Positions 58,460 through 64,000 of a DNA stretch of 64,000 bases are shown here, in pieces. Source of the stretch: an uncultured cyanobacterium. GTDB taxonomy: Bacteria > Cyanobacteriota > Cyanobacteriia > PCC-6307 > Cyanobiaceae. How positions within the stretch are numbered: the first letter of the stretch is position 1; every line of letters begins with the position of its first letter. Under the pieces are notes generated by a model. It searched no databases, was not told where the DNA came from, and saw only the letters and a list, made by a program, of their open reading frames with translations. The stretch is from the NCBI GenBank assembly GCA_963697335.1, contig CAVONQ010000007.1, positions 162,878-226,877 on the forward strand, written 5' to 3'. The position numbers and the translations under genes were made by a program.

Positions 58460-58498
58460 TAATCAGGTGTTACCGGACCCGGATAATCAGCGTTGCTT
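58460..58498 (+). mobile_element. Candidate integron attI-like primary site (crossover G|TT at 58492)
   Basis: Direct repeat ataatcag..GTT occurs twice (ataatcaggtgtt, ataatcagcgtt); the second GTT begins GTTGCTTA, the complement of the downstream attC R'' box. Confidence 0.4.
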
Positions 58499-58627
58499 AG
58501 ACCGTGTTTTTACGGTTGTTGTGGGTCTCTAGAATACCTGCACGGCTAAGCAACAGCAAGCTCGAGCCGACACCGCCTGCTAGCCGAACGCCGTTCGTCA
58601 AGAACGGCGGTGCGGCTCAGCTAATCG
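58493..58627 (+). mobile_element. Gene-less integron cassette (~135 bp) with a putative promoter
   Basis: 5' end (G)TTGCTTAG-ACCGTG pairs with 3' CACGG-CTAAGCAAC; internal TTTTTA-17 nt-TAGAAT. Confidence 0.65.
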
Positions 58628-58633
58628 TTAGGC
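58548..58633 (+). mobile_element. Integron attC recombination site (86 bp)
   Basis: AAC-5 nt-gctCgagccgAcaccgcc ... ggcggtgcggctcagc-5 nt-GTTAGGC. The arms pair perfectly except C58563 and A58570, which are the G and T extrahelical bases on the bottom strand. Confidence 0.85.
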
Positions 58634-61564: not shown

Positions 61565-61568
61565 AGGG

Positions 61569-64000
61569 ATGGTTATGGAGATTATTCTGGAGAATCTCAA
61601 ACCGACGCGAAACGGTCATTTACGCCTGATTCCAAACATAAACGTCACTGGGCGAGTACTGCCAACTGACGTTTCTTCTAACGATCTCACATCGAATGAC
61701 AAATTAGATAATGAGCGCGCTGTGCGCAAATTAAGAGACAAGGAGATTTGTTCCTGTCGTTATCGATATCGGTCAAGACGAGTGGGAAGAACATCCTAAC
61801 TTAATATTGGAGGTAAGTTTCGATCCAGAACTTTTCCGAATACTAAACCAGAGTGGCTTACCTCTTGATTCACAGGGGCCGCAGCCCGTAAAAATTGATT
61901 TGCATGAGGCCAAGAAGGACAGCACCAAAGCGCGAGGTCTGCAGTTCTTCCTGGAAGCACAGACCTTTTGGGGGTCACCCCTCGTTTCGAATGACGCGAA
62001 CCCGTCTGTAGCGTTCCGAATTCTTGACGGGAGTAATGTGCTTCTCTCGCAAAGTACATGGAACAACAGTGACATACGCACAGCAGACGTTATTCTTTTG
62101 GGGGATAGTGCACCGCCAGAGCGTATTTATATGTGTGAATTGGAACAGAATCAACCCTCCGTGCGCGAACTAAGCGAAGGGGTAAAGGCTACGGGCGTGC
62201 CATTAACCCTAGTTCCAGTTGAAATCGGTATGGGCGACACTTGGCTGCAGGACCAATTTCAAGTTGGCTATACCGCTACTCCAGAAGGTAGTCAGCGAGT
62301 AATTTTTCATTTGCCTCGAATGGTTAATGATTCTGCTATGGTCCCGGGCTCACCCAATTTGCGTAACTTCACCGATAGCTATTTCCCATCCGAATCGATT
62401 GGCGTTCTCAAGGACTTTTGGCGGCTTAAGATAACGATTAAGGACGGGATAGCGTCGAACCTGCCTTTAGAAGTAGATAAGACTTATAGTTTGTATAAGC
62501 AATTGACACTCATTATTAAACTGCTGAAAGCTATCGCTAGCCTAATTTTTGAAGTTGACTGGAAAGTAATCCAAATCTGCTTTTTAGTATTTCAGATCTT
62601 TACCAAGTGCGTTTAGCGGTTGATAGCTTGCGGGCTAAGTCTGTCTCTCGGCTACAAAAACCTTAAATCCGAGCAAAGAACTAAGGTGAAGAGTATTAAG
62701 CCTATTCTGGATGCTCTATCGAAAGTTTTGGATCGACAGGATGACAAAGTGATTTTGACGGTGACCGTTGATGGGAATCCGCATCAATTCATGTACGATT
62801 CCCAGAATTCGAATTTACTTGAGAGGCTTTTTATTTCTCTTTTTAATATTCACAGCCCTCGGAACTATGGTGGCAATATCGAGGTATCCCCTCCCTGCTC
62901 AAGTGCTAGGTACGGCAAAATTCTGGCCGGTTCAATTACTTCTCAAGAAATACGGAACTTCCTGACGTCCCTAGGCACAGCTCACCCGCTCGCAATGGTG
63001 TATACAGGTTGGCTAGAGGTCGGCCATATTGATGAGATTGCTGCCTTCGCCCCCAATCCAAATGGTGGCTTTTGCATTCTCCGCGCTTCGCCGAAACTAG
63101 CTGTGGACATGCTAACACGCCTCAAAGCAGAACAAGCTCGAGGGGTTCGGGTGACTCGATTTTTTGGGGAAAAAGTGGCACGCACGAATGCGCTGGTGGT
63201 GCCACTGATCCACATCTGCCACCAAACACATTTCGCCGAATGATCGAATCTAAAATCTATGATTTGAAGGGATTCGATCCGAAGAATTGAAAATACGCAA
63301 AGCCTACATTTGGCGATTTTGCCTATCATGATGACCGCCAGTTTCTGGTCTTCAATAAGCTAAATAATGTCAATGCACGTTATGCCGCCATGATTCCCTG
63401 TGCCGATTTGCTGACAATTTGTAGGGAGACTAATCGTACAGTCGAAGACCTATTTCTTTCCAGTAGTTATGCGTATGCTGATTTCACTGGATATGCCGCC
63501 TATTATGACGACGATGTATATCGAAGTGAGGCTGAGCCGTTTCGATTGGACAAGGTGTTGTCCCGGGAGTTCTCTGGTATTAGCGTATATCCACTCCCTG
63601 TCCTTTTCGATTGGGTTACGGATCTTCTGAATAAACAAACCAGCGCCATCATACCTTATGTGGTTAACTTTCAGACATTGGGAAAGCATGTTCTTGTTCC
63701 CCGACCTTGCGGTGCGCGTACGCCTGTCGCCGATGCAGTCAACTTCATATCGGACCTACTGGCTAAATGGAGGTATCCTAAAACTTCTGTCGACGAAAAC
63801 TACATTCGTTCTAGAGGCCTTGATAAAACGTGGTATTGGACCAGTGCCTCCGAGAGGGTCAATCGTGCCGCGATCGGGGCAGACTCCTACTGACTTCGAT
63901 CCTGAATTTGAAGAGCTGATGCGCTCTAAAGCCAATATTATGTACAGCGAAAATCTTCAAAATGCAGGTATGGAAGCTATTTCGCCGCTTCCTGTCCTTG
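61569..64000 (+). pseudogene. Peptidylarginine deiminase (animal/cyanobacterial PAD type), fragmented by frameshifts and a stop; runs off the window
   Basis: Collinear PAD motifs across successive frames: DTWLQDQFQVGY, GGNIEVSPP, GWLEVGHIDE, ASPKLA, LPVLF, PYVVN...LVPRPCG. Confidence 0.8.

Follow-up and report, generated by a model that had tools for sequence, protein, structure and literature searches.

A 5.9-kb two-gene cassette with probable attC sites in a picocyanobacterial genome pairs a large protein of an uncharacterised family with a PAD-domain enzyme

We analysed a stretch of 64,000 nucleotides from an uncultured cyanobacterium (Cyanobiaceae; GenBank assembly GCA_963697335.1, contig CAVONQ010000007.1, positions 162,878–226,877, forward strand), hereafter the window. 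It forms the last 64 kb of its contig, C7, and the end of the window is the end of the contig. From position 58628 onwards, it holds the first 5,373 nt (58628–64000, plus strand) of a low-GC segment that is very probably an integron cassette bounded by attC recombination sites. Two genes are encoded on the plus strand: gene 1 (58658–61564), for a 968-aa protein of an uncharacterised family, and gene 2 (61569–64000), for a PAD-domain protein, which is frameshifted in the window and cut by its end. The segment continues into another contig of the same assembly, C1, which carries an intact gene 2 and the closing attC. We regard the pair as probably a conflict module in which the enzyme is a swappable effector.

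The opening attC (58548–58633, plus strand) consists of an R'' box, AAGCAAC (58548–58554), an imperfect stem with two extra bases in the 5' arm and an R' box, GTTAGGC (58627–58633), with the crossover after G58627. Its R'' complements GTTGCTT at 58493–58499 exactly. Folded as single-stranded DNA, 58548–58633 beats all of 200 shuffled sequences on both strands (z −3.9 and −3.6). The base composition changes sharply at this site. The genome (2.58 Mb) has a GC content of 0.66–0.70 (about 68%), and in the GC profile of the window the core genes up to ~56,250 lie at 0.70–0.76 and a sulfatase gene at 0.55–0.62 (about 0.59); between ~58,630, directly after the hairpin, and the window end the values are 0.42–0.49. 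A ribosome-binding site, GAGGAG (58645–58650, plus strand), is situated 7 nt before the ATG of gene 1 at 58658, which itself lies 25 nt past GTTAGGC. Both the drop in GC behind the hairpin and this ribosome-binding site with its start codon had been pointed out in a preliminary description of the window, and our data agree.

Contig C1 begins at window position 58631 and matches 58631–64000 with its positions 1–5363 (99.5% identity over 5,372 alignment columns). The 34 differing columns of this 5.37-kb overlap are mostly clustered (62554–62567, 62639–62646, 63175–63194 and 63878–63882), and the window copy has a net seven extra bases. Short contigs from sequencing run X2 share the C1 letters at 62972, 63878, 63879 and 63882, plus a one-base gap at 63880; none of the sequencing runs covers more than 0.14 of the stretch. 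The closing attC is found on C1 at 5857–5931, outside the window and ~60 nt past the stop codon of gene 2, where R'' GCCTAAC and R' GTTAGCG enclose an imperfect stem that has two additional bases in its 5' arm and is set off by a spacer of 5 nt on the R'' side and one of 6 nt on the R' side. Measured from the base after G58627 (G/TTAGGC, with the slash at the crossover) to the G at C1 5925 (G/TTAGCG), the cassette has 5,928 bp and ~46% GC. Beyond the closing attC, GC recovers to ~0.6 and then 0.7, and no further attC was seen in the next 3 kb of C1. No terminator was found after gene 2. An unusually large, multi-gene cassette of more than 5.3 kb, closed by an R'' close to GCCTAAC, the complement of GTTAGGC, had been predicted; size and gene number came out as expected, and the box found is exactly GCCTAAC.

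R'' can also be compared with the opening seven bases of the cassette to which it belongs. The two are complementary at 7/7 positions in the big cassette, in a gene-less mini-cassette that precedes it in the window and in an IS91 cassette on contig C16, at 6/7 in the C16 mini-cassette and in a mazEF cassette on the same contig, and at 6/7 in three cassettes of related genomes. This complementarity holds in all five cassettes of the window and C16 and is the trace expected of a circular cassette intermediate.

We searched for attC sites with an in-house covariance model, R2, made from nine attC sites of other arrays (C16 and the related genomes G019, G008 and G012) and excluding the sites of the big cassette. 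In its seed alignment, 8 of 11 pairs of the L-helix carry compensatory changes, with 95% of cells paired (26–38% in slid controls), and its covariation score was reached by none of 500 shuffles. In a search of 19.8 kb without filters (C1 1–16000 and window 56300–60140), R2 places the closing site first (C1 5857–5931; 25.1 bits, E = 3.8e-5) and the opening site second (58549–58633; 14.8 bits, E = 0.029), and the remaining matches have E ≥ 0.12. Within 56300–60140 the opening site is the only one at E < 0.1, and at the C1 positions equivalent to the window there is none at E < 2. A model match at 58548–58633 and a closing attC downstream had both been anticipated, and the earlier remark that no second attC lies between the genes or before the window end accords with this search. 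Several other procedures were less useful. A strict RYYYAAC/GTTRRRY pattern combined with folding was dropped for missing real sites, and two looser structural scans were dropped as swamped by GC-rich hairpins. A script that follows chains of cassettes found no closing attC for four copies in relatives or for C16, and one match, in locus L081, is probably spurious.

The array in the window starts with an attI-like leader (58433–58493, plus strand), which ends at the first recombination junction, the G of G/TTGCTT at 58493. It is followed by the mini-cassette, a gene-less first cassette or platform element of 134 nt (58494–58627, plus strand) that is conserved in the genus. The leader was recognised from its match to C16 (92.6% identity over 27 nt between window 58469–58495 and C16 4510–4484, ~150 nt beyond an integrase stop codon) and from the attI-like pattern that comes before every copy of the element in relatives. 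A contig of sequencing run X1 matches 58368–58493 and diverges from the window exactly after G58493. The element itself is 97% identical to C16 2014–1874, and the left flanks of the two copies also differ. In the interior of the element (58510–58540), a TAGAAT/TAGGAT box near 58529–58534 is kept in all copies (loci L081–L087), and the 8 nt before it vary. This box could be a promoter driving the cassettes.

Both the element and gene 1 were searched for in 60 related genomes. Window 58469–58633 recurs at 88–94% identity in three of them, all of one genus, with four full copies of the element in G012, two in G008 (plus one cut at a contig end) and one in G019; a further genome, G010, gives a partial match. 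One copy each in G019 and G008 lies 166–168 nt from an integron integrase gene (intI), and one copy in G012 lies 1.4 kb from one. The other copies have no adjacent intI, and three of these in G012 and one in G008 precede low-GC DNA. At all seven copies fetched from relatives, and in the window, GC falls from 0.56–0.67 in the 500 nt before the element to 0.43–0.51 in the 500 nt after it, and in the relatives it rises again 1.5–3.5 kb past the element; the exception to this step is the C16 copy, which mazEF follows. With R2 or R1, a smaller in-house model with four seeds, attC sites are found behind intI-linked copies (G012, G019 and G008) as well as intI-less copies (G012 and G008), R2 finding them behind two of the latter. 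One of the G012 copies occupies the same chromosomal site as the window array, after a 1141-aa gene (92.9% identity over 4.2 kb), with other cargo and no sulfatase gene. The window array opens with a conserved leader plus a gene-less element, and the cargo at this site differs between relatives, which fits repeated site-specific exchange. Gene 1 was found in none of the 60 genomes, which together with its low GC marks a recent import.

The preliminary description had stated that no integrase lies nearby. This is correct for C7, which has no match to the integron integrase model TIGR02249, and incomplete for the genome, in which an integron integrase gene is present on C16 (4656–5735; 466 bits against a cut-off of 265, with fitting Pfam domains). 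None of 14 control genomes passes the TIGR02249 cut-off. The C16 integrase is 80–87% identical to proteins named 'integron integrase' of Cyanobium sp. PCC 7001, other Cyanobium, Synechococcus CBW1107 and Aphanothece. By this similarity, the host is a Cyanobium-like picocyanobacterium. Matches to the model are confined to C16, C15 and C2, with none on C7 or C1. C16 1–5735 (locus L010) is a complete integron on the minus strand. Read on the integrase strand, it comprises the integrase, a 170-nt leader ending G/TTGAAC, the IS91 cassette, a 135-nt copy of the element and the mazEF cassette. The IS91 cassette (2.5 kb) encodes a tyrosine recombinase and an IS91-type (Y2) transposase and is closed by a 54-nt attC, GTTCAAC ... 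GTTGCTA; the mazEF cassette is closed by CTCTAAC ... GTTCGCT. In a genome-wide search, R2 detects five attC sites in a row on C14 (78438–83891; 54.9–68.1 bits) and single sites at C9 7964–8053 and C18 504672–504750, all three contigs being without a match to the integrase model. Arrays thus occur scattered over this genome. As to the remaining TIGR02249-positive contigs, C2 duplicates the recombinase/transposase part of C16 in its first 2.3 kb, and C15 carries at 5–680 (locus L012) a second integron integrase gene that is decayed (one in-frame TAA and frame changes), is cut by the contig start and adjoins a glutamine-synthetase-like gene.

The start codon of gene 2 (61569) lies 4 nt past the stop codon of gene 1. 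This position and the PAD assignment of the earlier description hold, and the single open frame it implied does not: in the window, the gene is broken into pieces of 76, 269, 207, 167 and at least 114 aa, two of which match Pfam PAD. On C1, the gene is an uninterrupted open reading frame of 951 aa (2939–5794) that aligns end to end with homologues. As the C1 frame is intact and aligns in this way, and the X2 contigs carry the C1 letters, we attribute the frame breaks in the window not to gene decay but to errors where the contig end has poor support, or to a minor variant. All statements on gene 2 refer to the C1 copy.

The intact protein matches Pfam PAD (PF03068) in three stretches with 123.4 bits against a cut-off of 25. 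It is also similar to the chains of human PAD1–4 (E = 4e-24 to 7e-17) and weakly to PAD6. The motifs WLQD, GHIDE and HCGTN align to WMQD, GHVDE and HCGTN of PAD4, and we take them to contain the catalytic residues (Asp, His, Asp and Cys). All six complete homologues compared retain the motif with Cys. Three inserts of ~160–200 residues separate the conserved blocks. Pfam reports neither PAD_N nor PAD_M, and the protein does not have the three-domain PADI architecture. Gene 2 thus appears to encode a PAD-fold arginine deiminase with intact catalytic motifs.

Gene 1 belongs to a sizeable family. Scoring of 8000 candidates yielded 337 relatives at E ≤ 1e-3, mostly of 950–1000 aa and 40–64% identical, all of which are unnamed or annotated as 'hypothetical'. 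No family was found in Pfam, PADLOC or PHROGs, NCBIfam gave a single sub-threshold match (14.1 bits against a cut-off of 225) and neither a sequence search of the PDB nor the Atlas searches returned anything informative. Pfam and NCBIfam indicate no NTPase, nuclease or other recognisable sensing domain.

We modelled the protein twice. The first model, from 29 sequences, is confident just for a helical N-domain (30–360) and a β-sandwich (600–770). The second, covering residues 364–968 and made from 103 sequences, has a mean predicted local distance difference test score (pLDDT) of 76.8 and a predicted template modelling score (pTM) of 0.58. In it, two strands of 28–30 residues (388–415 and 553–582) flank a low-confidence insert (426–537), which is the most conserved part of the family, and are followed by a jelly-roll domain and an α/β C-domain. 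Within the insert, residues 466–498 contain a single charged residue among 33, and the flanks contain 18 of 36 and 17 of 42 (50% and 40%). Hydrophobic and small residues alternate in this segment around a G-P turn, and the arrangement is conserved in 29 of 29 aligned relatives. We infer from this pattern that residues 466–498 may form a hairpin that spans a membrane and sits on the end of a long stem. No match to the PDB was obtained with Foldseek at E ≤ 1e-3.

In a collection of genomes, 460 stretches encode a relative of gene 1. The best 80 of these 460 reduce to 56 distinct loci, to which all the locus counts refer. They span Proteobacteria, Bacteroidota, Actinomycetota, Cyanobacteria, Chloroflexota, Acidobacteriota, Verrucomicrobiota and two methanogen metagenome-assembled genomes (MAGs). 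The genes upstream of the gene 1 homologues have nothing in common. Downstream, 43 of the 56 loci have a same-strand open reading frame (≥80 aa) that starts no more than 50 nt past the stop codon. In eight loci from several phyla, the immediate downstream neighbour is a PAD homologue (35–51% identity over the full length), which bears out the expectation that gene 1 homologues adjoin PAD genes in other genomes. The 35 other partners comprise, according to Pfam, six PT-TG proteins (one also with CdiA_C), three patatins, two flavin amine oxidases, two LodA-type lysine oxidases and two weak Het-C matches, the remainder having no family. When the partners are compared by BLAST, they fall into at least 16 mutually unrelated groups, each conserved over its full length and nine of them recurrent. 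Among the loci compared, the window protein is nearest to one of a Thiothrix MAG (72% identity over residues 364–968), whose partner is Het-C-like, and the PAD-linked relatives are 53–57% identical to it. Since its nearest relative is paired with a Het-C-like protein, partners must have been exchanged between close relatives of the large protein.

Some loci show additional features. A recurrent partner family of ~340–380 aa without a Pfam match is found in L047, L056, L058, L060, L061 and L065. In three of these six, a ~500-aa same-strand gene comes next, and some versions of the module may therefore have three genes. In L033, from an Oculatellaceae MAG, an attC-like site (13988–14075; 20.2 bits) lies 2 kb behind a PT-TG-type module, with a gene on the opposite strand in between and no such site upstream.

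A number of results count against an attC-bounded cassette. The score of the opening site is just 14.8 bits, and E values of in-house models are rough. With default filters, R2 misses both sites, bar a weak partial match on the minus strand (58583–58633, E = 2.7), and R1 finds neither at E ≤ 5. The closing R', GTTAGCG, has G in place of a pyrimidine as its last base; 5.9 kb separate the two sites, which is above the default clustering distance of IntegronFinder (4 kb); R2 finds no flanking attC sites over the 56 homologous loci, the weak site in L033 apart; and a consensus scan around the element gave no full sigma-70-type promoter. A crude structural attC scan returned 144 candidates in the genome and 144 in reversed-sequence controls; because of these equal numbers, structure alone does not discriminate in this GC-rich genome. 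One could thus take the segment for a low-GC island that arrived by another route, with hairpins that are terminators or dispersed repeats, and the element is indeed a dispersed repeat, with at least four copies in G012. We consider this highly improbable, given that no T-run follows the hairpins, that the complementarity between R'' and the cassette start is exact, that the model matches fall exactly at the two predicted places and that the element stands beside intI in three relatives. A more serious objection concerns the position of the cassette. C16 has a second copy of the 135–142-nt element, and C1 sets in 3 nt past the crossover; the cassette could therefore truly follow the integrase-linked copy, with the copy on the sulfatase side leading elsewhere, and what links the sulfatase side to the cassette is the path of the assembler through these 135–142 nt. 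The clustered differences in the C7/C1 overlap are what contig ends with poor support typically show, the genome has two copies of the element that are 97% identical and contigs C2, C15 and C16 also break in this region. Against an artefact of this kind, which we judge unlikely, C7 runs unbroken from the core genes via the element into 5.37 kb of the cassette, the two element copies differ in sequence and left flanks, the complete genome G012 has the element and low-GC DNA at the same chromosomal site and integrase-less copies with attC sites exist in relatives. It is thus quite probable that the integrase-less position of the cassette is real and not a wrong assembly path.

Regarding function, we are inclined, with some reservation, to explain the whole as a genuine cassette in a short integrase-less array that carries a two-gene conflict module, in which the large protein delivers or attacks at the membrane and the enzyme is the payload. 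The C16 integrase would likely excise and re-insert the cassette via folded attC strands. The two proteins would act together: the uncharged amphipathic β-hairpin of the large protein, on its long charged β-strands, would enter the target membrane, and the enzyme would do the damage, in this case by citrullinating target proteins. A membrane-perforating protein paired with a protein-citrullinating enzyme, as a putative anti-grazer or anti-phage effector system, had been suggested in the preliminary description. Somewhat doubtful within this explanation is the part of the large protein as a pore or translocator. Several observations are unfavourable to the functional reading as a whole. Pfam detects no similarity to pore-forming or translocating families; searches with Foldseek (PDB and BFVD) and VIA-align matched the jelly-roll domain alone (Z ≤ 7.7), the central region being poorly modelled; inspection by eye of gene 1 and most partners revealed no signal-peptide start; and the cassette has no third, immunity-like gene. 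Furthermore, the partners share no common N- or C-terminal motif, and a role of the variable N-domain as a partner-specific adaptor was rejected, as at matched core identity, N-domain identity is equal for pairs with the same and with different partners. Some of these features would suit an intracellular anti-phage system of the abortive-infection type, with the 970-aa protein as sensor or scaffold and the enzyme as an effector that is released on infection and kills or arrests the cell. The conserved component with a swappable effector (PAD, patatin, nuclease-type PT-TG or oxidase), the lack of visible signal peptides and of an immunity gene in the cassette, the spread of the family over many bacterial phyla and archaea and the mazEF cassette in the sister array on C16 all point in this direction, and phage-defence systems have been reported in integron cassettes (bioRxiv 10.1101/2024.07.02.601719). 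However, PADLOC-DB 2.0 has no family for either protein at E ≤ 0.1, gene 1 has no recognisable sensing domain and it is not obvious what a sensor would do with an uncharged amphipathic hairpin. LodA and amine oxidases, moreover, are known as secreted antimicrobial enzymes and not as defence effectors. We consider an anti-phage role, the main alternative, rather unlikely. Less likely again is a physiological role outside conflict, in which the large protein would be a structural or assembly component (shell, fibre or envelope) and the enzymes its cargo or modifiers. The jelly-roll is like those of capsid, cement and appendage proteins, with Z values of just up to 7.7, and the long β-hairpins, together with a conserved core that is modelled with low confidence, suggest assembly-dependent folding; yet the partners mostly belong to enzyme classes annotated as toxin or antimicrobial (PT-TG with CdiA_C, patatin, LodA), and the distribution is patchy, with none of the 60 relatives having the gene, which travels as a foreign low-GC cassette.

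Returning to the two-gene conflict module, a broader proposal can be made only tentatively. The pair may represent a widespread weapon or immune system of bacteria and archaea, in which a new-fold protein of ~970 aa would assemble and drive its hairpin into a membrane, combined with interchangeable enzymes (PAD, patatin, LodA, amine oxidase, PT-TG or Het-C-like). Citrullination would then be a prokaryotic conflict effector, and the integrase-less platforms would be a trade route for such modules.

Outside the array, the sulfatase gene (56620–58254) matches Pfam Sulfatase with 143.5 bits. The region 56335–58463 around it is absent from the same locus in G012, and G019 has an inverted copy of the gene (83% identity) ~2.5 kb behind the integrase-linked element. 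The sulfatase gene may be mobile cargo in its own right. A tRNA gene (31460–31531; 74.4 bits) is the sole Rfam match in the window at gathering thresholds.

The segment provides a clean example of a 5.9-kb integron cassette with two genes, from a picocyanobacterial genus in which the first element of the array is also present at several integrase-less chromosomal sites, each before foreign low-GC DNA. The cargo matters more than the integron part: a large protein with no family or recognisable overall fold is almost always coupled to a replaceable, toxin-like enzyme. We found no description of this gene-pair family in Pfam, NCBIfam, PADLOC, PHROGs or the literature on PT-TG/patatin/oxidase and on arginine deiminase/integron cassettes, preprint supplements being outside this scope, and the family is apparently both widespread and undescribed. 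If the coupling is functional, it would define a new family of conflict systems, give bacterial PAD enzymes a biological context and perhaps bear on how LodA-type oxidases reach their targets.

Comparison with known systems places the components as follows. Bacterial homologues consisting of PAD_C only have been described, and the three-domain PADI is found in animals and late-branching cyanobacteria; in the part of that article available to us, neither the word 'toxin' nor the word 'operon' appears (Cummings et al. 2021, PMC8826395). Gene 2 shares with these deiminases the PF03068 match and the Asp, His-x-Asp and Cys motifs, and differs from them by having no PAD_N or PAD_M, by its three large inserts and by its location 4 nt behind an unrelated 968-aa gene. 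Among polymorphic toxins, PT-TG proteins without a known trafficking domain have been noted, and the accessible portion of that preprint describes no 970-aa neighbour (bioRxiv 10.1101/2025.10.01.679605). The family studied here has PT-TG partners as well, one with CdiA_C, and phospholipases; in contrast to polymorphic toxins, the whole gene is replaced, not a C-terminal tip on a common N-terminus, and there is no immunity gene. In binary AB toxins, a pore-forming B component such as that of the anthrax protective-antigen type acts with a separate enzyme. The resemblance is limited to the way of working, a large protein with an amphipathic uncharged β-hairpin on a long stem being encoded beside a separate enzyme; no similarity in sequence or fold was found, no signal peptide was seen and the partners come from many unrelated families.

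On the integron side, sedentary chromosomal integrons with an 'inverted' intI that reads towards the cassettes are known, as in Treponema denticola. The arrays of C16, G019 and G008 resemble them in having intI and cassettes on one strand, with the array 3' of intI, and the genomes considered here differ in that additional copies of the first element, without intI, occur at various places in the chromosome. Clusters of attC sites without an integron integrase are termed CALINs, and the default clustering distance of IntegronFinder is 4 kb (Cury et al. 2016, PMC4889954). With two attC sites and no TIGR02249 match on C7 or C1, the array in the window classifies as a CALIN, an assignment that depends on the assembly path. 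Like CALIN arrays, it has a pair of attC sites whose R and L boxes lie on one strand, and its promoterless genes of foreign base composition begin just past the crossover; no intI is nearby, and one exists elsewhere in the genome. It differs in the 5.9-kb spacing of its attC sites, in the two long genes of its cassette and in the attI-like leader with a conserved gene-less element, which also follows intI in relatives. Since this spacing exceeds the default distance, standard settings would probably not cluster the two sites. The cassette and its array thus belong to a known class of integrons, and what sets them apart is the size of the cassette, its two genes and the integrase-less copies of the entry platform in Cyanobium.

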